Positions 16,630 through 30,546 of a stretch of DNA of 64,000 bases are shown here, in pieces. Numbering within the stretch: position 1 is the first letter of the stretch; each line of letters begins with the position of its first letter. Source of the stretch: an uncultured Clostridia bacterium (GTDB taxonomy: Bacteria; Bacillota; Clostridia; TANB77; CAG-508); NCBI GenBank assembly GCA_947623725.1, contig CANQHI010000002.1:7296-71295 (forward strand). Reading direction: 5' to 3'. The position numbers were made by a program, and so were the translations under genes. Under the pieces are notes generated by a model. The model ran no database searches. It worked only from the letters and a program-made list of their open reading frames with translations, and was not told the DNA's origin.

Positions 16630-17484
16630 ATGATTTTCAAAGATTACTATAAAATACTTGGACTTGAATCAAATAAAGTAAGTTTAGATGAAATAAGAGT
16701 AGCATATAGAGAGAAAGCAAAGAAATTTCATCCTGATATAAATGTTGGAAATAGTGAGGCAGAAGCAATTTTTAAAGATGTAAATGAAGCTTATAGAATA
16801 TTAAGTGATGCTTCACAAAGACGAAAATATGACTTTAAATGGAATAAATATATAGGAAGTAAAAAGAAAAAAACAACAACACAAAAAAGAACATTTAAGG
16901 AAATGCTTTTAGATATATTATTTGGAGGAATATCAAAACAAAAAAGTGTGAAAAAAGTTGTTCCAGAGTATGGGGAAGATATTGATACAGAAATAGATAT
17001 TTCTTTAAAAGAAGCATTTTTTGGTGTAAATAAAGTTATAAAGTTAAGAGCTGTAAACGGAAGAGAAACATCATTCTCAGTAAAAGTTCCAGCAGGAGTG
17101 CAAAATCATGATAAAATTAGAATTGTTGGACAAGGTAAAAAAGGAAAAAATGGCGGAAAGAATGGAGATTTACGCGTAATAGTTAATATAAAAGATGGTA
17201 ATAAGTTTAAACTTAATGGAATAGACATATATGCAGAAATTGAAGTGACCGTATACGAAGCAGCACTTGGATGCAGAAAAAATATTAATTTATTTGGAGA
17301 GGAAATTAATATAATTATTCCGAAATGCTGTAGTAGTGGGAAAAAGCTTTGTATACCTCAAAAAGGATATAAAAATGGAAAAGGTAAAAGGGGCAATTTG
17401 TATGTAATTACAAGGATTGTATTGCCTGAAAAATTATCTAAAGAACAAGAGAACCTTTATATAAAATTAAAAAATGTAAGTTAA
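16630..17484 (+). CDS. DnaJ-domain co-chaperone (J domain + DnaJ C-terminal domains, no Zn finger; CbpA-like)
   Basis: J-domain DYYKILGL ... KFHPDIN with HPD. Gly/Lys linker. C-terminal beta-sandwich repeats. Confidence 0.75.
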   Translation: MIFKDYYKILGLESNKVSLDEIRVAYREKAKKFHPDINVGNSEAEAIFKDVNEAYRILSDASQRRKYDFKWNKYIGSKKKKTTTQKRTFKEMLLDILFGGISKQKSVKKVVPEYGEDIDTEIDISLKEAFFGVNKVIKLRAVNGRETSFSVKVPAGVQNHDKIRIVGQGKKGKNGGKNGDLRVIVNIKDGNKFKLNGIDIYAEIEVTVYEAALGCRKNINLFGEEINIIIPKCCSSGKKLCIPQKGYKNGKGKRGNLYVITRIVLPEKLSKEQENLYIKLKNVS

Positions 17485-17677: not shown

Positions 17678-18196
17678 ATGACTGAAGGATTTCATGGTAA
17701 ATATTTTAGTGTAACTGATCCACAGGGTGTTAATACAGTTATATATAGAATTAATGAAACTGCCAAGGAATTACAGAATAAATATCCCAAATATACTGTT
17801 GAACGCTTAGTTTTCTCTGAAGAAATAAATGGTAATAATAAAAAGAAAACATTTTTTATTGATTACCCACAACCAGAAGGAGAAGATTTAGTAATACTTT
17901 CTTTTGGAGAACAAAAAGTAGTAGTTAATATGGGATTTTTAAAAGATGATAAAGTAAAAATATCTAAAAGACCATTGCCTGTTAAATTTGATACAATTTA
18001 TTCAGAACAAACAATGGAACTTAAAGATTTTAAATATACGCCAAATTTAAGAAGACCAATAACAATTATTGATCCAGAAACTACTGAGGAAATAAAACCA
18101 ATGATTTATTTAGATAAAAATACAAATGAAGTAAGAGGAAGATGTAAATTGAAACCAAATAAATCTTATTTCAGCTTTGAAATAAGAGACAAATAA
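17678..18196 (+). CDS. Hypothetical protein (172 aa), first gene of the T4CP operon
   Basis: RBS AGAAAGAGG. No recognised family. Confidence 0.5.
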   Translation: MTEGFHGKYFSVTDPQGVNTVIYRINETAKELQNKYPKYTVERLVFSEEINGNNKKKTFFIDYPQPEGEDLVILSFGEQKVVVNMGFLKDDKVKISKRPLPVKFDTIYSEQTMELKDFKYTPNLRRPITIIDPETTEEIKPMIYLDKNTNEVRGRCKLKPNKSYFSFEIRDK

Positions 18197-18211
18197 GGAG
18201 GAGTATTAATA

Positions 18212-18487
18212 GTGAAAATATGTTGTACAGAAGTTGGAAATGATTCAAGACTTAATAAATTTATCGGTAATAATCATGGAGAAAAATATGAAGTACAAGA
18301 AAATGAAATGCCTTCAGAAATAGTTCAACTTTCAACCGGTGATTTTAATGAAAATAGTCAAATGCTTAATCAGACACAACTTAGAGAATTAAAAGAAAAA
18401 TTTAATGCTAGAGTAACAAATTATGCATTAAGACAAAAAGAAGAAATAATAAAAGCTGATAAGCAACAAGATGTAACTAGAGATTAA
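18212..18487 (+). CDS. Hypothetical protein (91 aa), GTG start coupled to the upstream gene
   Basis: AAGGAGG 10 nt upstream of GTG. Acidic/Q-rich. Confidence 0.45.
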   Translation: MKICCTEVGNDSRLNKFIGNNHGEKYEVQENEMPSEIVQLSTGDFNENSQMLNQTQLRELKEKFNARVTNYALRQKEEIIKADKQQDVTRD

Positions 18488-18543
18488 AATTATAGGTTTA
18501 GAAGGTTCAAAAAAATTAAAACCAATGAGAAGGTAAAAAATAT

Positions 18544-20580
18544 ATGAAAGATAGTTTTATAGTAATGATAAAAAAGCATATGGTAGCAATAATATTAACT
18601 ATTGTATTTTGGCTATTTGCAGAGATATTTGTAGTAGCCCCATTATCTACAACAATAGTTGATAGTAGTGCTACCGGTGTTTTTGATTTAAGCTACTTTT
18701 TTGAAAATTTTACATTAAATATTGTAAGAGTTGCAGGTGTTGGAAAAATATTTAAAGAAGGTTATATAGGAACCTTTATGTTATGGACAGCAATTTTTAC
18801 AGTATTTTTTGCTATATGCGTTGGAATAGGATTATTTAAAAGTAGAAAAAGAGGAAAATATGACAAAATAGAACATGGTTCAAGTGACTGGAGTTCTGGT
18901 GGAGAACAATATAGAGTACTTAGCAGAAATGCCGGAATAATACTTGCAGAAGAGAATTATTTACCTTTAGATAAATTAGGTAATACCAATGTACTAATAG
19001 TCGGTGGTTCAGGTTCTGGTAAATCATCTGCATATACTATTCCAAATGCTCATCAATGCTTGGGATCTTATGTATTTACAGATCCCAAAGGTGAGATATA
19101 TGATGCAACCGCAGGATACTTAAAATCACAAGGATATGAAATAAAATTATTAAATTTAGTAAATCCAAATAGTAGTGATAGCTACAATCCAATACAACAT
19201 GTTAAATCAGAATTAGATGTAGACGTTATAGCAAATACCATAGTAAAAGGACAAAAATCAGAAGCAGCAGGAGCACAAGATCCATTCTGGGACAATATGT
19301 CAGAGCTATTATTAAAAGCTTTAATATATTATTTAATAGCAGCAGTACCTCCAGAAGAACAAAATTTAGCAAGTTGTGCAGAACTAGTTAGAGCAGCAAA
19401 TACAAAGGGAAATACAAATCTTTTATCAGAATTATTTAATAAATTACCTTATGATCACCCTGCAAGAATGAATTATAAATCAGTTGAAATATCTTCAGAC
19501 AAGACATATAGCTCAATATTAAGTTCATTACAATCAAAATTAGGAAAATTTGATTCAAAGGAAATTGCAAATGTAACATCAACTAATACAATAAGTTTTG
19601 AAGATATTGCTACAAAGAAAACAGCTTTATATGTAGTATCATCAGATACACATACAGCTTACGACTTTTTACTAACAATATTCTTTTCACAGATGATACA
19701 ACAATTATATGATTTTGCAGATAAAAATGGTGGAAAATTGCCACAAAAAACATTTTTTATACTAGATGAGTTTTCTAATATTGGTCAAATTCCAGACTTT
19801 GATAAAAAAATATCAACAAGTAGAAGTAGAGGAATTTCATTTAGTGTTATATTACAAAACTTAGATCAGCTTAAAGCATTATATGAAAAATCTTATGAAA
19901 CAATAATAGGTAACTGTGATACGCATGTATTCTTAGGAAGTAACTCTTATGCAACAGTTGAGTATTTTTCAAAAGAATTAGGAGAAAAAACAATATCACA
20001 TTATAGTAAGTCAATAAATAGAGACAATTATAATGATAGAAAAGGTTATAGTGAATCTGATCAAATAATGGCAAGAGCACTTATGACACCAGATGAATTA
20101 AGAAGATTAGACAATAATAATTGTATAATTTTCGAAAAAGGTTTAAAGCCAATTATGGCCCAAAAATATTATTGGTTTAAAAAGCCTAGAATTACAAAGG
20201 ACTTAAATTCAATTAGAATAGATCATAATGACTTTGATGCAGGAGATAGAGGAGAGTGGAGAAAATTTGATCCATATAACCCATTTACAGGAAAAGCAGT
20301 AGAAGATGAAAAAGAACAATCATTTAAAGTAGAATCACTAGATGACTTATGGACTGATGAAGAACCAAAAGAACAAAATTCAAATGAGGCAAAACCAATA
20401 GAGCAAACAGTTCCAGAAATAAAAAATAATAGTGAAGAATTAGCAAATCAAATAAAAAATGAAATGGAAAATAATAATGCTTATCAAAGTTCAGTGGAAC
20501 AACCAATCCAAGAAGATGAACTAGATATTCAAAAAGAGCTAGAGGCTAAATTTGATGAGTTGTTTGGTCCAATGGAATAA
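18544..20580 (+). CDS. Type IV secretion coupling protein homolog (TraG/TraD/VirD4 family ATPase), orphan
   Basis: N-terminal TM helices. Walker A LIVGGSGSGKSS. Walker B-like FFILDEFSNIG. Acidic C-terminal tail. No relaxase or VirB4 neighbour in the window. Confidence 0.75.
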   Translation: MKDSFIVMIKKHMVAIILTIVFWLFAEIFVVAPLSTTIVDSSATGVFDLSYFFENFTLNIVRVAGVGKIFKEGYIGTFMLWTAIFTVFFAICVGIGLFKSRKRGKYDKIEHGSSDWSSGGEQYRVLSRNAGIILAEENYLPLDKLGNTNVLIVGGSGSGKSSAYTIPNAHQCLGSYVFTDPKGEIYDATAGYLKSQGYEIKLLNLVNPNSSDSYNPIQHVKSELDVDVIANTIVKGQKSEAAGAQDPFWDNMSELLLKALIYYLIAAVPPEEQNLASCAELVRAANTKGNTNLLSELFNKLPYDHPARMNYKSVEISSDKTYSSILSSLQSKLGKFDSKEIANVTSTNTISFEDIATKKTALYVVSSDTHTAYDFLLTIFFSQMIQQLYDFADKNGGKLPQKTFFILDEFSNIGQIPDFDKKISTSRSRGISFSVILQNLDQLKALYEKSYETIIGNCDTHVFLGSNSYATVEYFSKELGEKTISHYSKSINRDNYNDRKGYSESDQIMARALMTPDELRRLDNNNCIIFEKGLKPIMAQKYYWFKKPRITKDLNSIRIDHNDFDAGDRGEWRKFDPYNPFTGKAVEDEKEQSFKVESLDDLWTDEEPKEQNSNEAKPIEQTVPEIKNNSEELANQIKNEMENNNAYQSSVEQPIQEDELDIQKELEAKFDELFGPME

Positions 20581-20684: not shown

Positions 20685-20768
20685 TCTCGTATCTTGTTGT
20701 CGCAGAAAAGTGCTTCACACTTTTCGCTCCATTCGCGCTTCGCTTGAGCGCTACGCGATACTTCGAAT
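20685..20768. other. GC-rich (~50% GC) island with two tandem hairpins at an A-rich to T-rich strand-composition switch
   Basis: GAAAAGTG-cttca-CACTTTTC (20705-20725) and GCGCT-tcgcttg-AGCGC (20735-20751). Flanked by >100 nt of A-rich sequence upstream and T-rich sequence downstream on the + strand. Confidence 0.3.
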
Positions 20769-20933: not shown

Positions 20934-21368
20934 TCAATTCAGTGCATTTTGTATTAATTTTTTTATAATCTCATCAAGTTCTTCTCTTGATTTATATTCA
21001 TATTTATTAATAGATTCATCTTGTCTAATTTTCTTAACATCTTCATCATATTCAACATTTTTGAATATAACTTGTATATATTTAACCTTACTTTTTTTAG
21101 CTATTTCATATTCTTCTAATGTATACTGTCCGATTCTTTTTCCTACTATCATTATAAATATATCAGAAGTAGGAATTTCACTATTATAGTCTGCTTGTTT
21201 TCTTTCAGTTGATACGGTATTATCAGCAAATTCACATTCAAATAAATTAATTCTAACTCCATCATCAATTAGCTTATCTTGCAATTTTCTAATAGTGTTT
21301 CCTATCTGATTTCTTTCATTTTTAAATTCATTAACAGATGATGCAAGGAAAATTTTTAATCTTTTCAT
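20934..21368 (-). CDS. Standalone DUF4062-like domain protein (144 aa)
   Basis: KIFLASSVNEFKNERNQIGNTIRKL ... FECEFAD ... SDIFIMIVGKRIGQYT matches the DUF4062 pattern (VFISS..DL.EER ... mE.F ... cDiyIgIlG.RYG). Its start overlaps the stop of the upstream TPR gene. Confidence 0.55.
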   Translation of the reverse strand: MKRLKIFLASSVNEFKNERNQIGNTIRKLQDKLIDDGVRINLFECEFADNTVSTERKQADYNSEIPTSDIFIMIVGKRIGQYTLEEYEIAKKSKVKYIQVIFKNVEYDEDVKKIRQDESINKYEYKSREELDEIIKKLIQNALN

Positions 21369-24300
21369 TATTCTTTTCCTTTCTTTTTATCATTTTTTTG
21401 CTGAGCTTTAAATTCTGCTTTAAAGTTTTTAGCCATTTTTGCATATTTAGTAGCATCATCAATTAAATCTAATTTTATGCATACTCTAGCTAAATTATAA
21501 TAAGTAAAGGCTAAATCTTGGGCATATTCATGGTTCTTTTCATAAGCTTTTTTTAACATATCAAGAGCTTTTAAATAATAAGATGAAGCATCATCATATT
21601 TTTTATTGTGTCTACATGATTCTCCCATTTCTATATAGTCATAAATTAAGGTAGTTTCATATTTTTCATAATTATCTTTTATTAAATTTTCTTCAAGTTC
21701 TATAGCCATAAAGTAATATGTTTCTGAATCATCATATTTTTTATTATCATAATAAAATTCAGCAACCTTATGATAAGCGTTAGCAAGTGAAGCAGTATAC
21801 TTATCAGTTTCCTTAAATAGTTCTCGCTCTGTACTCATAGATTTTAGATAAAAATATTCTGTATATTTTTTATCCTTTAATTTAGAAAATATTAAAGCAA
21901 TATTATAATATAAATTAGCTAAATTATGTCTATTTACTATTGTTTTCTGCATTGATGGTTTTTCACGAATTTCAAGTGATATTTTATAGTAATCTATTGC
22001 TTTTTCAATTTTATTAGTATTAATATAAACACTAACTAAGCAATCACATATATCAGCATAATCTGATTCATATAATTTTTTATTATCATTGTATAATTTA
22101 GAGCATAATTCAAAAGCACTTAAATAATAATTTTCTGCGTCTTTATACTGTTTTCTTTGGAAGTATGTGTTGGCTAATTGTTTATAAGTATTATATAAAT
22201 AAGTAGCATATTCAGAAAAATCATTATCTAGAAGTTTTTCTAAAACAGCTATTCTATCTTTATAATATGTTTCAACCTTTTCATAGTCTTGCTTTTTGTC
22301 ATACAAATTTATAAGGTCATTATATGTTTTTGCAAGATTTAGTCCATTTTTATTAAAATTGTATTCTGCTAACTTTTTATATAATTCAAATGCTTTTAAA
22401 TAGTACTCCTCAGCTTTATCAATTTGATTCATATTATAGAAATAAAGTGCTCCTAGTCTATTAAAAACAAATGCAATATTATCAGTATAATCATTATTTT
22501 TTGCCTTTTTATCTAAATCTTGTCTTATTTTTAATGATTTTAAATAATAATTTTCAGCTTCTTTATATTTTTTAGTTACTTTATAAAGTTCACCTAAAGT
22601 ACAGTAAGAAGAACTTAAGTCGAATATTGAGTTAGAATTATTTTCATCAGAATATTTTTCTCTAATTTGCATACTTTTTAAAAGATATTTTTCAGCATCT
22701 TCATACTTCTTCATATTATTCAAATATAGAAGACCTAAATCATAGTAACATGAGGCAAGAGTTGGATTAAAATATTTTTCATCTCTAAGATGAATTTTTT
22801 CTATTAGTTCAATTCCATCTAAATAGCTTTTTTCTGCTTCATCATATTTTTTCAAAAGTATATAAATATCGCCTAATAATTGATAATTCCTTGCTAAATC
22901 TGGTTCATATAAACCTTTCATATTAGGAATTAAATTCTTGTAAATACTTATATTATTTACTAAATATTTTTCTGCTTCGTCATAATTTTTTATTTTCTTA
23001 TATAAATTACTGATTTTGTCATTTAATAGAGCTAAAGAATATTCAGAGTCTGATTTTTGTAAGTCCAAAGTATCTTTTAATATATCAATAGCCTTTTTAT
23101 AATATTCTTGATCATTTCCTAACAAATCGCCAAGTGATTCATAATCACCTGCAAGATAAAAATTATATTTTCTTGCATTTTTTTCTGCTAATTTTTTGTC
23201 AACTTCAATTTCCATTGAGCAATATTCTTTTGCTTTTTCTAAATTATTCATTGTATTGTATAGGTTAAAAAAGCAGGCATATAAATTTGAAAAGTAAGTT
23301 TCAATATTTTTATTATCAAATTCTTCCACATAGTAATCAAGTTGTTCCTGAGCTTTTTTTAAATATTTTTCTGAAGTCTCATAATCTTTTAATTTTATAT
23401 AAAATGCTCCAAAACTTTTGTAAATTTGTATAAGACTTATTTGATTGCTTTCTGTTTTATTATTAGCAAGTTTTTCATATAATTTTAATGCCTTGTTATA
23501 ATAAAATTGAGTTTTGTCATATTTATATATTTTTAAATAAAAACGACCAAGGGTTTGATAAGAACTTGCTAATCCGACTCATATAAGCTTGAGAATTACT
23601 TTCATATAATTCTTCCATTAGTTTCGTATCTTTTAAAAGATAATCTTCAGCTATATCATATTTTGATATGTTAAGGGCATATTTTCCAAGCTGATGATAA
23701 GAAGCAGATAAAAGTTCTTTTTTATCTTCATCTTTAGGATATTTTTTTACTAAGTCAATTCTTATATCTGTTGATTTTCTATAATATTTTAATGCATTAT
23801 GAAAATCATTATATTTTTCAAGTAAAAGTGCATAGTTATTATATGAATTAGATAATACAACTCTATAATAATCGTCACTGTCTTCAGTTAATATTTTTTC
23901 ATCTATTTCTATTGCTTTCAAGAAACAGTCTTTAGCTAGTTCAAATTTTGCATCTTCAAAGTATAAATATGCTAGTCCTAGATTATTATAAGCAATAGAA
24001 AGATTTTTTTGATACAATTTCGGATTAATTTCAACTAATTTTTTGTCAATTTCAATTAATTCTAGATATATTTTTTCAGCTTCTTCATATTTACCAATAT
24101 TATAATAAATTATTCCTAAGTGGTTATAAATACTTGATAAATTATCATAATATATTCCTTCGTCAAATTCTTTTTCATAATACTCTTTAGTGGAACTTAA
24201 ATTTAAATATTCTTTATATTTGTTAGCAAATTTTATTGCTTTATCATATTGGTTTTGGTTATTCAAATATAAACTATATTTATATAAACTGCGTCTATTT

Positions 24301-25310
24301 AGATTTCCTTGTTCATCAAGCTTTACAGCTTCCTCAAAAGCTTCTTCAATTTCTTTATATCTATTGTTATTATTTATATCCAATTTTAATATATCAATTC
24401 TTTGCATAAGCTCGTTTACAATTGTTTGCATTTCTTCTTTTTGCTTCTCTTGAATTTTCAATAATTTATCACCATCTGATTTTAAATCTTCAAAAGATAA
24501 AGCATTTTTTGCTTCTTCTAAATCACCATCATCTAAGCATTTTTTTGCATATATTTGTCTTTTAGAAAGCTTGCCGTCCATTGATGAAGAAATAAAGCTA
24601 CTTTCTAGTTCAATAATATTATTCTCAATTTGGTATATATTATCTTTTATTTTTGATCTCTTATCATTTATATCAGAAAATTTTTCAAAAGCTTTTTCAT
24701 CATCAGGATTTTTTCTAATAATATCTTTATATTCCCAATATTCTTGGTCTAGTTTATTATACTGTTCCTTTAAGTTATTTAAGTCTTTGTTGTTGAATAT
24801 AAATGGAATATTATCTAAAGTCATTATTTCGTCTTTATTAATACATAACTTGTTATCTATAACCTCAATTTTACCAGCTTCTAAGCCTAAAGATTTTAAT
24901 TGCAAAATTATATTTAACTTGATTGTATCAATATTTTCATACTGATTATAATAATGACCTAATTCTTCATCTAAATGCTTCATAAAATTAACAACTGACT
25001 CATCTTGATTTTCGCTTTTCTTGATATATGTTGTAATTTTAGGATTACGATTATTCTTGAAAAACTCATAAGCAGTATTAAATTCTTGAACTATCTTTTC
25101 ATCTGCAGTATGTGAAAATAGTATAAAAAACAATTCACTTTTCTTTATATCATCAGTTAAAACTTCAGAATCATCATCTGTGATTAGTCTAAAATAAATA
25201 TCATAATTCTCATATTTGTCATTTAAATCGCGTATAAAATTTCCAATTTCATCTTTTTCGTTTTGTAGTTCTTTTTCATCAACAGCTAAGAAAATATTAA
25301 TTTTTTTCAT
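21368..25310 (-). pseudogene. DUF4062-like domain + coiled-coil + long TPR-repeat protein (~1,300 aa), split into two ORFs (23523-25310 and 21368-23329) by a frameshift near 23579-23590
   Basis: The N-terminus MKKINIFLAVDEKELQNEKDEIGNFIRDL is paralogous to the 144-aa neighbour. The TPR reading frame continues without a stop from 23578 down through the GTG at 23329 (VGLASSYQTLGRFYLKIYKYDKTQFYYNKALKLYEKL...), so the 653-aa ORF is the downstream part of the same gene. Confidence 0.6.
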
Positions 25311-25406
25311 AACTTCATATCCTCATATAATATGTTAATTTTAATAAACATATTCTTATTTTATATTTAGGTTTTTTAAAGGCTACCTATAAACCTTATA
25401 ATTAAC

Positions 25407-26351
25407 TTATTTCAAGTGTTCTGGAATTCCCATTACATGCATAAAATTATTAAAACTTTCCTCATCTAATTCTTTTTTTACATCATCAACAGCTAAGTTA
25501 AATTTATTTAAAAAATTATTATAATCGCTTTTTTTCAAAAGTCTTTTTAAAATAATTATAATAGATAAAATGTCATTTTCACCTGATTCGTAGTGTTCTC
25601 CATTTTTAACAATTCCTAAATCATCATGAAAAAAAGACTTTTTATGAATTGGATAAGAAATACTTAAATTCAAATTAAATAGCATATTGCTATGTGCAGC
25701 GATGTTTCTAACGACATTTAGCATTTTCAAAAAGGTAAGTAAATCTTTATAATTAATTTGACAAAGATTAGATACTTCTTTTTTGTCCTCGATTTTCATT
25801 AAACTATAGAATTTTATAATGTTTCCAAAAGTAATTAAAGTAGTAAACATCCATAGAGGAATTGTATTATATAATTCTTTACATTCCTTTATATCCTTGT
25901 AATTATCAATATTTCTATTTAAGTTATCATCTAAATTTTTCATGAATTCTGTATAAAGTTGTTTAGTTTTATAATTAACACTAAAATTTTCTTCATTTAG
26001 ATAATTGTAAACACCATATTTCTTAGAAAAAGTATTTGCTATGTATGATTTTATATTAGTTTCAATTATAGAAATATAATTAAACATAATATTTCTAAGT
26101 TCTCTGTCAAATTTGTAAACAGCATAAATTTCTTCAAAATAAGTGTCCGTAGTACATGTCTCAATTCCATTTTTTTTAGAATTTTTTATATCAATAAATA
26201 TATCTTTATAACCAGTAATTAAGTTATAATAGTTTTCTCTTAAAAGGACTTCTTTAGCTTCTTTTTCATTTTTTATTATAATGTTACTAGACTTTATTAT
26301 CTCTATTTGTTCATTTATATCTTTGTATTCTAAATTCATATAAAATTTCAT
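25407..26351 (-). CDS. Abi_2 family abortive-infection protein (AbiD/AbiF-like)
   Basis: N-terminal EQIEIIKSSNIIIKNEKEAKEVLLRENYYNLITGYKDIF matches the Abi_2 consensus (L...NYYRL..Y...F). C-terminal VRNIAAHSNMLFN matches RNxxAH. Confidence 0.7.
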   Translation of the reverse strand: MKFYMNLEYKDINEQIEIIKSSNIIIKNEKEAKEVLLRENYYNLITGYKDIFIDIKNSKKNGIETCTTDTYFEEIYAVYKFDRELRNIMFNYISIIETNIKSYIANTFSKKYGVYNYLNEENFSVNYKTKQLYTEFMKNLDDNLNRNIDNYKDIKECKELYNTIPLWMFTTLITFGNIIKFYSLMKIEDKKEVSNLCQINYKDLLTFLKMLNVVRNIAAHSNMLFNLNLSISYPIHKKSFFHDDLGIVKNGEHYESGENDILSIIIILKRLLKKSDYNNFLNKFNLAVDDVKKELDEESFNNFMHVMGIPEHLK

Positions 26352-26464
26352 TCCTTTTTTCGTACATAATTATAAAAGTATTATTCTTTATTTTTCTATT
26401 TTGTATCCTAGTTTTATCAGTACTTTTAAAGATTCTTGTAAAGTATTTCTATATTAATATGGGC

Positions 26465-28270
26465 TTATACATTTTTATCTTCCTTATAAATATATGGTAT
26501 ATTTTTAATAATTTTTATATCTGAGTCTTTATAATTTTTATTAAGCTTATGTTCAATTTCATCTAGTTTTTCAAAATCAGCTATAGCAGGGTGTAATTTT
26601 GCTAAAATATGTTTTGCATCATTTATTTTTTCACGATATTTCTCAACATCAGCAATTGATGCACTTTGATATCCATCACTTCTCATATATGCTATCCATC
26701 TATTGTGCTCATTTTTAACTAATTCATTAAAAATTTTATCGTCTTGAAGTTTTTTCTCGAAGTTATTTAAATCAGTTCCAATATCACCAGTATATTCATC
26801 TTTTAATACTGAATAAATTTTGTATTTTATATGAGTTGCAGTTGCTCTTGAAGATTTTACATTATATTCTGTTTCATAATATTTTTCTAAATTAACATCA
26901 TCAGCATTGTATATTAAATGTACTCTTTGAGACATGTGCTCTATTTTTGAATCAATAATTGGATATTTGTAGTAAATATCATTAATGCTTCCAAAAGCAT
27001 TTAAGTTGTATTGTGTTTTTTCGTCAGCCTTTAAATAATTTATTTGCATGCTTTTTTCTTCATCTTTTATCCAAATATTAATAATTGGCTTATTATTGTA
27101 ATTTTCTTTATCTTGTAACAAGAAATATTTTCTTAAATAAATAGCTTCTTTTATATTTATTTCATCATTTTGAAGAGTTACAACTACATAATTAATATTT
27201 TTTAATTTATTTAATTCATCTAATGCTTTTTGAGAATTAATATCTGCTTCAATAAAGTTATAGTCGTAGTTTGCAATTAATTCAGGACATTCTTTTGTAA
27301 GTAATTCTTTTATGTGATTTGCTCTAATATCAATAATGTTTATTTTTAGCTTATATCCAATAATCTGACCACACCATGTAATTATCTTTAAAAATTCTCT
27401 TCCAACTTTGCCACAACCTACTATTAAAACAGAAATCTCATTGTTTATAGCATTTAGATAAATAGGCTTATCTTGCAATAACTGTATAATAGTTCTTTCA
27501 ACTTCATTTACAATTTCTAACTGAATATTGCCTTTATCAGTAGAATCTAAGATAATTCTAGAAACTTCATCATTTAAGATACTATAAATTTTTATCTTTT
27601 TATTTAATGATTTATTTTTTTCAATTAATCGTAAAGTTAAAGTTAAATTTTCATTTTCTATTTCATTTACTAAATAAATAGTAACAGTATTGCTTTTTAT
27701 CTTTTTTAAATTTATATTTTCTATTAATGAATAAAATTTAGTAATATTAAGTCCTTTTAAGTCATAATTTTTTGCATCATCTTTTTCACAATTTGCAAAA
27801 ATAATAGTTTTATCTTTATTATATAAGTTTTTAGCTATAGTTACAGATTTTTCATTTAATTCTGAAAAAATTAATATATCTTTTTTTCTAGTAAAATACA
27901 ATTTGAATTTGGTTGTAAAATCACCAATAAGAGTTAATAAAAAAGATACTGTAAGTAATGGCATTAATAATGTTAATAGATAAATTATACCAATATAAAT
28001 TGTATCAAATATATTTATGATTTGAAAATTATTAAGTATTCCTAAATTTTCATTTAAAATGATAGTTTGTGCAGAATATAAAATAGAATTTACTAGTTTT
28101 CCCATAAAATCAGGCTGTGTACTTAGTGGGAAAATTAATATAGCAAGTGAAACTGTCATTCCAAGTATTGATATAGGTATCCATTTTTTTGTATCATTTA
28201 TATTTTTTTTCGCTTTTATAACTGTAAAAATTAATATAATTATAGATAAAAGTAAAAATATATTATTCAT
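26465..28270 (-). CDS. Membrane protein: N-terminal 4-TM domain plus tandem Rossmann/RCK (TrkA-N)-like domains (CASTOR/POLLUX-like channel architecture)
   Basis: Four hydrophobic helices in the first ~120 aa. The GxGxxG-type loop VLIVGCGKVGREF begins a Rossmann domain. 601 aa. Confidence 0.45.
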   Translation of the reverse strand: MNNIFLLLSIIILIFTVIKAKKNINDTKKWIPISILGMTVSLAILIFPLSTQPDFMGKLVNSILYSAQTIILNENLGILNNFQIINIFDTIYIGIIYLLTLLMPLLTVSFLLTLIGDFTTKFKLYFTRKKDILIFSELNEKSVTIAKNLYNKDKTIIFANCEKDDAKNYDLKGLNITKFYSLIENINLKKIKSNTVTIYLVNEIENENLTLTLRLIEKNKSLNKKIKIYSILNDEVSRIILDSTDKGNIQLEIVNEVERTIIQLLQDKPIYLNAINNEISVLIVGCGKVGREFLKIITWCGQIIGYKLKINIIDIRANHIKELLTKECPELIANYDYNFIEADINSQKALDELNKLKNINYVVVTLQNDEINIKEAIYLRKYFLLQDKENYNNKPIINIWIKDEEKSMQINYLKADEKTQYNLNAFGSINDIYYKYPIIDSKIEHMSQRVHLIYNADDVNLEKYYETEYNVKSSRATATHIKYKIYSVLKDEYTGDIGTDLNNFEKKLQDDKIFNELVKNEHNRWIAYMRSDGYQSASIADVEKYREKINDAKHILAKLHPAIADFEKLDEIEHKLNKNYKDSDIKIIKNIPYIYKEDKNV

Positions 28271-28509
28271 TTTTATATAGGTCCTTTCAAAAACTCTTAT
28301 ACTCTTATTTTACCACAAAATGGGGTACTTTTTCAATGAAATTACATAATTAATTTTAATAAAAATACATATTAAAATTGGTGGAAAAATATTTACAAAC
28401 AAATGTTTCTATGATATATAATATGAAATAGTATAAAAGATAAAAAGACTAGGTATATTTTTTGTAGAAAGGAGAGAAAATCTATTTATATAAGTAGATT
28501 TAAGTAATT

Positions 28510-29547: not shown

Positions 29548-30534
29548 ATGATTAAATAAAAAGCTATAATATATAAAATAAAAAATTAAAATAAATATTA
29601 AATTAAAAAACAAAAAAAGAAAAAAATAAAATAAAAAATATAATATATAAAATATAAAAATTAAAATAAAATTAAAAATAAAAATTAAAATTATATTAAA
29701 AATAAAAATATAAAATATAAGAAATCAAAAAATAAGATAAAAAATAAATATAATTTATAAATAAAAAATATAAAAAGTAAAAAAGAAAATGAAAAAATAA
29801 ATTAATAAAAAGAAAATATATAAAAAATAAAAAGTATAAAAATAAAATGATAAAAATTAACTGAAAAAAATATTTTATTAAGAAGAAAATATACAAAAAT
29901 ATCTAAATTTAATTTTAAATTAATAATTTCTTGATAAAAAATGTCAAAAATAATAATGTATCTGTTATGAAAGAAATTGACAAAAAATCGTCATTTTAAG
30001 ATGAAAAAAATAAAGAGTAAGATTAAATTATATAATTTAAGAATAACAAACGTATAATCAAAAAGACAAATTAAAAGAAAAGCTAAGATAAAAAAAGCTA
30101 AACTTGAAAAAAACTAGGGATAAAAATAAAAAATGACATATAATTTAAAAAATATAAGCTATAAAATTGAAAAGAAAAATCTATAAAAAACACAACCTAA
30201 TAGACAAAAAATATTAAAAATTTTTTCAAAAAAAGAGAAACTTGTCAAAAAAACAAACAAAACAAGCCTGAAGAGCTAAAAATTCAAAAAGAAATATTTG
30301 GTAATAGAGCAAGCGAAAAAAATTGATGATAAAAAACAAAAATAAAATTATCTATATTATTTTAATAATTAAATAAGAAATAAATTATTAACACAAAAAG
30401 TTTATAAAAGATAAAAATAATTTTGAAAAAAACAATACAAAATAAAAAAATTTTTATCAATAAATTATAAAATTTTTATATAAAAAATTAATAAATGTAT
30501 TATAAAATTTTAACAAAAATAAAAATTAAAAATT
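29548..30534 (+). repeat. ~1-kb non-coding A-rich low-complexity tract (plus strand almost T-depleted) separating the SbcD-like and SbcC-like genes
   Basis: Runs of AAAAATAAAA/ATATAAAA-type words. Stops in all frames. No regular CRISPR-like periodicity. Confidence 0.6.
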
Positions 30535-30546
30535 GGAGGATAAAAT

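Follow-up and report, generated by a model that had tools for sequence, protein, structure and literature searches.

The stretch of DNA analysed here (64,000 nucleotides from an uncultured Clostridia bacterium, GenBank assembly GCA_947623725.1, contig CANQHI010000002.1, positions 7,296 to 71,295; hereafter the window) carries at 20934-28270 an island of minus-strand genes whose composition supports its description as a defence-like accessory cassette. On balance, we favour the view that these genes constitute a single anti-phage operon of the abortive-infection type that follows the plan of the Thoeris systems, with a TIR-like enzyme of the DUF4062 type replacing the canonical TIR protein. While domain identities, paralogy, synteny and selection can be read directly from the data, we infer the defence activity from homology and genomic context. 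Five co-oriented open reading frames (ORFs), all on the minus strand, cover exactly 28270..20934, the extent that an earlier note on this DNA had given for the island, and the GC skew switches its sign exactly over this block. From 28270 downwards, these ORFs encode a membrane protein (A), an Abi_2 protein (B), the two parts of a giant tetratricopeptide-repeat (TPR) protein (C1 and C2, jointly C) and a small DUF4062 protein (D).

Gene D (20934..21368) codes for a stand-alone DUF4062 protein of 144 amino acids (aa), a domain of the type of the TIR-like NAD+-cleaving enzymes (NADases). DUF4062 proteins have been described as NADases with a catalytic Glu residue that confer defence through NAD+ depletion, in two 2026 preprints only and for single-gene systems (10.64898/2026.05.01.722283; 10.64898/2026.06.25.731849). 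It had been predicted that D and the N-terminus of the giant protein share one domain, and that this domain is DUF4062. The shared domain was recovered both by BLASTP (53% identity over the first 32 aa) and by an hhalign comparison of the D family with the N-domain of C (98.9% probability, E 2.9e-17, 114 columns). The family name applies to D without difficulty (32.1 bits against a cut-off of 24.7 for Pfam DUF4062, PF13271), whereas the N-domain of C found no match to this Pfam model at E<0.1 and is connected to DUF4062 through profile homology. C1 (23523..25310, 595 aa) consists of this degenerate DUF4062/TIR-like domain (aa 1-125, nt 25310-24936), a small beta unit, a helical stalk (169-370) and about five TPRs. 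An AlphaFold2 (AF2) model of the first 370 residues of C (pLDDT 87.8) shows the same order, with a five-stranded alpha/beta domain (1-125), the small beta unit and then long helices over some 200 residues; the N-domain possesses a TIR fold and thus the flavodoxin-type fold of TIR/NDT-like proteins.

The two paralogs differ in the residues on which catalysis by such enzymes depends. D retains the motifs RKQ (aa 56-58) and TLEEYE (aa 83-88, nt 21122-21105), and none of its residues Q58, E85 and E86 varies among 7 orthologs. In C and close relatives the RKQ loop is missing and the position of the Glu residue is occupied by E, N or K, with the C protein of the window keeping the sequence QEF; the combination of catalytic Glu and Q motif is therefore present in D but not in C as a family. 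A profile search of 1.84 billion representative sequences returned at least 150 clusters (E<1e-98) in which the same N-module is followed by TPRs in proteins of 620-1375 aa. Most of these clusters carry the canonical DUF4062 motifs (IFLASS, RKQxEYN and GxFTxEEF), and such canonical relatives of C reach Pfam DUF4062 at 20-21 bits only. The distribution of motifs suggests that D and C divide the roles of catalysis and sensing between them. Two related proteins (P0076 and P0141) have a D-type domain fused ahead of a C-type protein, and the motif alignment shows that in both of them the second domain has degenerated like that of C, the Glu being replaced by S or D. Furthermore, the start codon of D overlaps the stop codon of C2 in the sequence TAATG, the overlapping arrangement of small and giant gene to which the earlier note had drawn attention. 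Because of this fusion pattern and the TAATG overlap, the data support a physical complex of C and D in which D would be the catalytic subunit. In a further relative, P0115, an extra N-terminal DUF4062-like stretch precedes the C-type module.

Gene A (26465..28270) encodes a membrane protein of 601 aa. Its membrane part (aa 1-126; hydrophobic segments 1-24, 29-51 and 83-119) is predicted to form 3-4 transmembrane helices, and an AF2 model of the protein (pLDDT 89.8) displays helices at 2-126, two Rossmann-type domains (131-267 and 278-435) and a helical C-terminal domain. The first Rossmann-type domain is RCK-like, and the second is an RCK/KTN domain that has the Rossmann RCK fold with its GxGxxG signature in the form of GCGKVG (nt 27418-27401); it narrowly passes the Pfam TrkA_N model (24.8 bits against a cut-off of 23.8). 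This agrees with the RCK-domain membrane protein predicted earlier. No Pfam match of A was found to SIR2, SLOG, Macro, DUF2270, DUF6650, SLATT, HIT or the CMP-hydrolase families, and none of the called genes beside A in the fetched loci is a transporter-type partner. In this A differs from the proteins with tandem-RCK gating rings (TrkA, KtrA, CASTOR and BK), since it possesses 3-4 helices and neither a Trk/Ktr/K+-channel pore domain nor a selectivity-filter motif.

At its C-terminus (aa ~497-595), A contains a divergent domain resembling the ryanodine receptor (RyR) repeat, also known from R12 domains. A profile of the C-terminal part of the A family had only RyR repeats as its top matches in the PDB (E 2e-7 to 0.01), and 10 of 13 members of the A family match Pfam RyR (PF02026), the best of them with an E-value of 6e-5. 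In A, the residues concerned are EH522NRW525 (nt 26710-26696), H560 (nt 26599-26585) and D584; H522, W525 and H560 are invariant in the A family and D584 is conserved in at least 90% of it. RyR-domain proteins bind or cleave the 2'/3' isomers of cyclic ADP-ribose (cADPR) via H-x-x-W, H and D, which in the RyDEP-type RyR domain are H75-x-x-W78, H100 and D117 (PMC13232231). Judged by its sequence, the RyR-like domain of A has this residue pattern and may also have the helical R12 fold signature of the phage RyDEP/RyR-domain proteins, whose His-x-x-Trp, His and Asp residues contact 2'/3'cADPR or ADP-ribose (ADPR) (PMC13232231). RyDEP, however, is soluble and serves phages as a counter-defence enzyme or sponge, whereas the domain of A is host-encoded and forms the C-terminus of a membrane-bound RCK protein. 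Also in contrast to RyDEP, relatives of A have a second, canonical RyR domain that is either fused to A (L004, L028), encoded by a separate ORF of 92-95 aa (L005, L022) or lost. Here and below, L numbers denote related loci from metagenome-assembled genomes (MAGs) or metagenome contigs, and P numbers denote related proteins. The spacer between A and B of the window (26352..26464) contains the remnant of such an RyR mini-gene on the minus strand. Alignment with L005, where a 92-aa RyR ORF is intact, and L006, which has the same deletion, shows that the start codon, 7 further codons and the last ~20 codons were kept and that about 195 nt between them were deleted. A host-encoded RyR module that comes and goes in this manner might serve as a signal buffer.

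Gene B (25407..26351) encodes a protein of 314 aa that matches the Pfam Abi_2 model over its full length (model positions 1-184 of 184; 5.4e-38, 131.6 bits) and the PADLOC AbiD model with 1.1e-53 (180.8 bits), in line with the Abi_2 (AbiD/AbiF-type) assignment made before. Abi_2 proteins have reportedly been placed in the HEPN superfamily by Anantharaman and colleagues in 2013. With its full-length Abi_2 match and an R-x4-H motif (RNIAAH, aa 215-220, nt 25709-25692), B resembles AbiD, AbiD1 and AbiF of Lactococcus. Those are single genes, however, whereas B is located between putative effector and TIR-type sensor in the window, L004, L014 and L028 and is absent in other lineages.

All loci with A, C or D that we collected belong to uncultured Clostridia and Bacilli and were recovered in gut metagenomes or MAGs. 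The order A-(B)-C-D recurs in three of them with gaps of 2-24 nt or overlaps and in differing chromosomal contexts, as expected for the accessory cassette that had been proposed: A-B-C'-C-D in L004 (gaps 2-24 nt; after mutS), A-C-D with overlapping genes in L013, and A-B-C-D in L014. The small and large DUF4062 genes, whose conservation as a pair the earlier note had wished to see checked, also recur on their own as C-D or D-C without A (L008/9, L016, L017), apart from the single-chain fusions described above. In further loci A (26% to 67% identical to A of the window across these neighbourhoods) is combined with genes for canonical TIR proteins, namely TIR-MORN (L020; in L028 as A-Abi_2-TIR-MORN), TIR-WD40 (L026/27, L032), TIR-NB-ARC-TPR (L030/31), which we take to be Avs-like, and a TIR protein of 1,016 aa (L033). 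Wherever the flank of an A homolog is readable, a TIR-type gene lies either 12-35 nt away or one gene off, the intervening gene coding for Abi_2 in L028, L004, L014 and the window and for a protein of 680 aa in L033. The only A loci without a TIR-type neighbour (L022-25) are those in which the contig ends within about 1 kb. A is hence the constant partner and the TIR-type sensor the variable one; because L028 reads A-Abi_2-TIR-MORN, canonical TIR and DUF4062 proteins fill the same slot. Relatives of A or C were not found in collections of viral contigs and plasmids, and a metagenome scan yielded only 5 additional short loci. In L030 (3137-8172), a PNP_UDP_1 nucleoside phosphorylase gene is situated directly upstream of A and TIR-NB-ARC-TPR, and in L033 (300-8903) unknown proteins of 680 aa and 542 aa surround the 1,016-aa TIR protein. 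Genes are split in L014 (5429-7604, C as 174 + 560 aa) and L029 (7245-8164, Abi_2 as 105 + 146 aa); such splits are either errors of assembly or signs that a toxic system is often inactivated.

These neighbourhoods also bear on the alternative that independent systems merely lie side by side: AbiD on its own, C and D as a self-contained NAD+ depleter of the Swarozyc/Evangelion kind with a TPR sensor, and A as an unrelated membrane protein regulated through its RCK domains. Such an arrangement would agree with the status of AbiD as a stand-alone system in PADLOC, with the C-D pairs that lack both A and B, with the occurrence of A without B (L013, L020, L026) and with the fact that the characterised DUF4062 systems are single NAD+-depleting genes. 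It does not account for the TIR-type gene beside A in every lineage with readable flanks, with a partner architecture that changes each time, while A homologs lacking a TIR-type neighbour were not seen among these; moreover, gaps of 12-35 nt or overlaps indicate operons, and A carries a domain resembling a type shown to bind cADPR signals made by TIR proteins. We consider independent systems an unlikely, though not a far-fetched, explanation.

In the single-operon reading that we favour, the TPR array of C would sense a trigger made by the phage. The degenerate N-terminal DUF4062 domain of C, together with the helical stalk, would oligomerise and dock D, which would supply the catalytic Glu residue, and the resulting C/D complex would cleave NAD+ by analogy with the NADase activity of the Swarozyc and Evangelion DUF4062 proteins. 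A might then respond to an NAD-derived nucleotide (ADPR or one of its derivatives, cyclic or otherwise) or to the declining NAD+ level, through its RyR/R12-like pocket, its NAD-type RCK domains or both, whereupon its tandem RCK gating ring would open or disrupt the membrane domain of 3-4 helices and depolarise the infected cell. B, as a reportedly HEPN-type protein, would be an optional second effector, probably an RNase, that adds RNA cleavage where it is present. More specifically, and as a tentative proposal only, A could be a membrane channel gated by nucleotides, with its RyR/R12 domain as the reader of an ADPR-type messenger from TIR or DUF4062 enzymes, DUF4062 acting as a signal generator with C as the pseudo-enzyme sensor and D as the catalytic subunit. 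Were this the case, the island would represent a bacterial pathway leading from TIR via a cADPR-like signal to an RyR-domain channel, a prokaryotic counterpart, and possibly a forerunner, of cADPR-ryanodine-receptor signalling, and it would contain the first DUF4062 signal generator, with sensing and catalysis on separate subunits.

It is conceivable, if rather improbable, that the same operon functions without a dedicated messenger. The NAD-type RCK domains of A would in this case respond when NAD+ collapses or ADPR rises and amplify this change to membrane failure, or the RyR-like domain would act as a glycosidase or sponge and thereby set a threshold against self-activation. Nothing in our data separates this variant from the messenger-based model, and the invariant H/W/H/D residues suit ligand binding and catalysis equally.

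Several observations weigh against the Thoeris-like operon and its messenger. The characterised DUF4062 enzymes yield plain ADPR and nicotinamide and no dedicated signal (10.64898/2026.05.01.722283), and a survey of Thoeris systems discards standalone TIRs and Avs TIRs as likely NAD+-depleting effectors (10.64898/2025.12.03.692087); the TIR partners of A are large sensor-fused TIRs. The C-D pairs without A leave room for C and D to act alone in an abortive, NAD+-depleting manner, and the gaps of 113 nt (A-B) and 96 nt (B-C) could hold separate promoters. A of the window itself scores 19.3 bits against Pfam RyR, for which the gathering score is 27.4, and its membrane domain has no recognisable pore motif and no Pfam match to Ion_trans or TrkH. 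The lineage of the window has lost the extra RyR gene and has a frame break in C, and all relatives come from MAGs or metagenome contigs.

The frame break deserves closer description. C had been annotated as a single gene of about 1,200 codons, and the homology to an intact giant protein was confirmed, but in the window the coding sequence is not one ORF. The TPR pattern runs from the C1 frame (...YESNSQAYMS) into frame +1 (GLASSYQTLGRFY...) at a +1 break (AGT-C-GGA; 23572..23577) that was located by three-frame translation, and the last 17 codons of C1 are an out-of-frame tail past this point. C2 (21368..23572) is the TPR array that forms the counterpart of the C-terminal half of the giant sensor; it is open over 734 codons in frame +1, and its first start codon is a GTG at 23329 (653 aa). 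Pfam detected TPR families only in C1 and C2, with TPR_12 at 7.2e-46 and TPR_NPHP3 below its cut-off in C2. Joined together, C1 and C2 give a protein of 1,312 aa that aligns in one BLASTP high-scoring segment pair with the intact 1,284-aa protein of L004 (1-1289 vs 1-1273, 37.7% identity), and this alignment crosses the junction (AYMS-LASSY vs AFESELAQSY). By homology, the giant protein is thus real and is interrupted here by one extra base.

For an evaluation of this break, we compared the window with two further assemblies (L005 and L006, 94-95% identical in this stretch; dS ~0.12-0.3 among all three strains). A sequencing error was rejected as its cause, since the break is identical, without any indel around it, in these three assemblies, which differ by 4-6%. 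Purifying selection acts on all ORFs of the island: dN/dS is 0.08-0.12 for A, B, C1 and D (0.12 for both B and D) and 0.25 for C2, compared with 0.5-0.8 in an off-frame control. In addition, no stop codon is present in the 734 codons of linker and C2 in any of the three strains, while a simulation with 97 random substitutions, as many as were observed, led to an expectation of about 10 stops (P of none = 0.0002). On account of the dN/dS values and this simulation a dead pseudogene is unlikely. At the break, the 0-frame reads CGG, a rare codon that occurs only 5 times among the 12,754 codons of the genes in the window. Known +1 frameshift signals (SD-CUU-UGA, homopolymer) were not found at the break, so that programmed frameshifting is a conjecture, and no usable Shine-Dalgarno sequence precedes GTG 23329. 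It could be that a +1 frameshift is programmed at the break, that C2 is a TPR-only subunit translated from a start of its own, or that the gene is a young pseudogene; in the first case, the giant sensor may be expressed through +1 ribosomal frameshifting at a hungry CGG codon. Three of the five CGG codons are codons 534, 535 and 538 of an ORF at 51339-52979, just ahead of the next gene, which begins at 52981; the end of this ORF may have been called wrongly or may be of odd composition.

The same data speak to the idea that the island is a decaying, non-functional relic in the lineage of the window, its sensor being frame-shifted and its RyR gene deleted. The +1 break in C and the 195-nt deletion in the RyR mini-gene are what one would expect of a relic, and the split genes of L014 and L029 show that breaks occur in other cassettes too. 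This interpretation is nevertheless improbable in the light of the purifying selection and of the reading frame that stayed open in three strains, and C1 alone matches the size of the many intact family members of 620-650 aa. C2 evolves faster than the other ORFs of the island, and the sensor repeats vary widely. In L004 (10001-15754) the sensor occurs as tandem paralogs of 624 and 1,284 aa; their N-modules are highly similar while their TPR arrays diverge, as would be expected of a duplicated sensor with two specificities.

The variable repeats are also relevant to the last alternative, in which the genes form a physiological NAD/ADPR-signalling module without any role in defence, e.g., one that converts a stress or sporulation cue into ion flux. 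RCK proteins normally regulate ion transport, and the hosts are spore formers (a YpeB gene is found in the flank). Against such a role stand the patchy distribution of the cassette at varying chromosomal sites, its linkage to Abi_2, the TIR-NB-ARC-TPR and TIR-WD40 proteins among the partners of A, the wide variation of the sensor repeats and the faster evolution of C2. Since patchiness, Abi_2/TIR linkage, variable repeats and a fast-evolving C2 are hallmarks of conflict systems, we regard a purely physiological module as very improbable indeed.

No paper on this combination of genes was found in a literature search, and the data support the classification of the island as an undescribed defence cassette. 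The earlier statement that it is not a described defence system therefore holds for the combination, but defence by DUF4062 proteins as such has in the meantime been described for single genes. Swarozyc (KpSwz) converts NAD+ to ADPR and nicotinamide, requires the Glu residue E97 as well as an auxiliary domain and is activated by the phage portal protein (10.64898/2026.05.01.722283), and the Evangelion systems (Eva01-04) are single-gene defences composed of DUF4062 and an auxiliary (AUX) region that deplete NAD+ (10.64898/2026.06.25.731849). Their order of N-terminal DUF4062 domain, helical stalk and variable AUX sensor region is that of C, and their catalytic Glu resides in an E-Y/E-F motif; D has the full set of motifs. 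Unlike these single-gene systems, the island contains a conserved two-protein module of C and D within an operon of 4-5 genes, its AUX region is a TPR array of about 900 aa, and the pair is accompanied by a membrane-bound RCK/RyR-like protein and by Abi_2. TPRs are mentioned in neither preprint and operons are not mentioned in the one on Evangelion; that on Swarozyc states that some DUF4062 proteins share operons with other enzymes, without describing a system of this kind (10.64898/2026.05.01.722283). Because it barely reaches Pfam DUF4062, the branch to which the island belongs was probably outside the PF13271-based data sets of both studies.

Thoeris systems have been sorted into 29 putative types, of which types V-XI were validated and type X combines a short TIR with an 'ion channel' (10.64898/2025.12.03.692087). 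With them the island shares the two-part layout of a TIR-type sensor, predicted to consume NAD+ in the island, beside a putative effector that has a nucleotide-binding domain and often transmembrane helices (types II, V, VI, VII and X), and A orthologs are paired with canonical TIR proteins. A differs in lying outside the named effector families (ThsA, ThsC-ThsL), a comparison that leaves aside the 18 other putative types of the survey. Furthermore, its TIR partners are large repeat-fused proteins and not short ThsB proteins, and in the window DUF4062 takes the place of TIR; no gene of the window gave a match to Pfam TIR, TIR_2 or ThsB_TIR. As a candidate, the 'ion channel' of type X was rejected because A aligned with the presumed type X effector of B. 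cereus at a BLASTP E-value of only 2.2. This presumed effector, a multi-transmembrane ORF of 223-246 aa, lies next to a B. cereus gene for a TIR with 89% identity to the type X TIR listed for B. cereus Q1. A tblastn search of plasmids for type X Thoeris led to type II systems (TIR + macro) alone. Neither the Thoeris survey nor its accessible supplements use the terms RyR, TrkA or RCK (10.64898/2025.12.03.692087). Within the texts accessible to our literature search, none linked Thoeris with TrkA, and 'Thoeris' and 'RCK' occurred together only in one general review of nucleotide second messengers from 2023.

With the Avs/STAND proteins and the eukaryotic DUF4062 proteins of the TEP1/NPHP3 type, C has in common an effector-type N-domain that is followed by a repeat sensor, including the sub-threshold resemblance of its TPRs to TPR_NPHP3. 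In contrast to them, it has no NACHT, NB-ARC or other P-loop module between domain and repeats: a STAND NTPase in C was rejected, as Pfam found no P-loop NTPase and the AF2 model of its N-terminal part shows the TIR-like domain and the beta unit followed by helices only, consistent with the absence of an NTPase module stated in the earlier note. Judged on these comparisons, the predicted system is neither Swarozyc or Evangelion (single-gene) nor any of the named Thoeris types that were compared, nor Avs (no NTPase). By analogy, it would work like Thoeris, with parts related to Swarozyc/Evangelion, Thoeris and Avs.

Some consequences follow if this picture is right. The locus suggests that DUF4062 can act in the manner of ThsB, upstream of a dedicated effector, and that labour may be divided between a degenerate sensor-borne domain and a small catalytic paralog, a pairing supported by the natural fusions. 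A unites an RCK gating ring with a domain resembling the RyR/R12 type by which phages bind or destroy cADPR immune signals and is tied genomically to TIR-type genes of at least five architectures. It is thus a candidate for a host receptor that is based on the ryanodine-receptor repeat and recognises ADPR-type signals, and it bears on the question of whether the R12 domains of RyR sense cADPR. Searches with profile models and PADLOC, proposed earlier as a check, matched Abi_2, DUF4062 (in D) and TPRs; PADLOC reported AbiD and one generic TPR model only, and neither PADLOC nor NCBIfam matched A, C1 or D. Current defence finders would hence flag AbiD alone at this island.

A candidate promoter of the operon is located at 28271..28340 on the minus strand (TTGAAA-18-TAAAAT with an extended TG, at 28336..28307). 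It is the best-scoring minus-strand site, but promoter and terminator scans found promoter-like sites to be no commoner than in shuffled sequence, so that the promoter evidence is weak. An Rfam scan of the island detected no RNA family. The surroundings of the island are not two housekeeping blocks, as had been assumed. To its left lies an orphan gene for a VirD4-like type IV coupling protein (17678-20580; NCBIfam conju_CD1115, 445 bits) that is preceded by two unknown ORFs (172 and 91 aa) and, further left, by DnaJ-like (at 16630), HD, Ddl, MurF-like and YpeB genes; its right neighbours are an sbcD-like gene, an AAA/sbcC-like gene and prfA. The island hence sits between a mobile-element relic and housekeeping genes. 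No other conjugation genes were found between the DnaJ-like gene and the island. The VirD4-like gene is probably the relic of an integrative element, and this element may have brought the island in.

Gene D and the virD4-like gene converge on an intergenic region that otherwise has more than 85% AT. This region contains at 20700-20765 a GC-rich element of about 70 nt with a perfect 8-bp hairpin (GAAAAGTG/CACTTTTC); the element has no Rfam match and no T-run 3' of the hairpin. Between the sbcD-like and AAA/sbcC-like genes, a segment of about 1 kb (29548-30546) with 13% GC and without any ORF of at least 40 aa is built of degenerate A-rich repeats (AAATAAA; periods of 40-159 nt), and L006 has a gap of equal size at this place.

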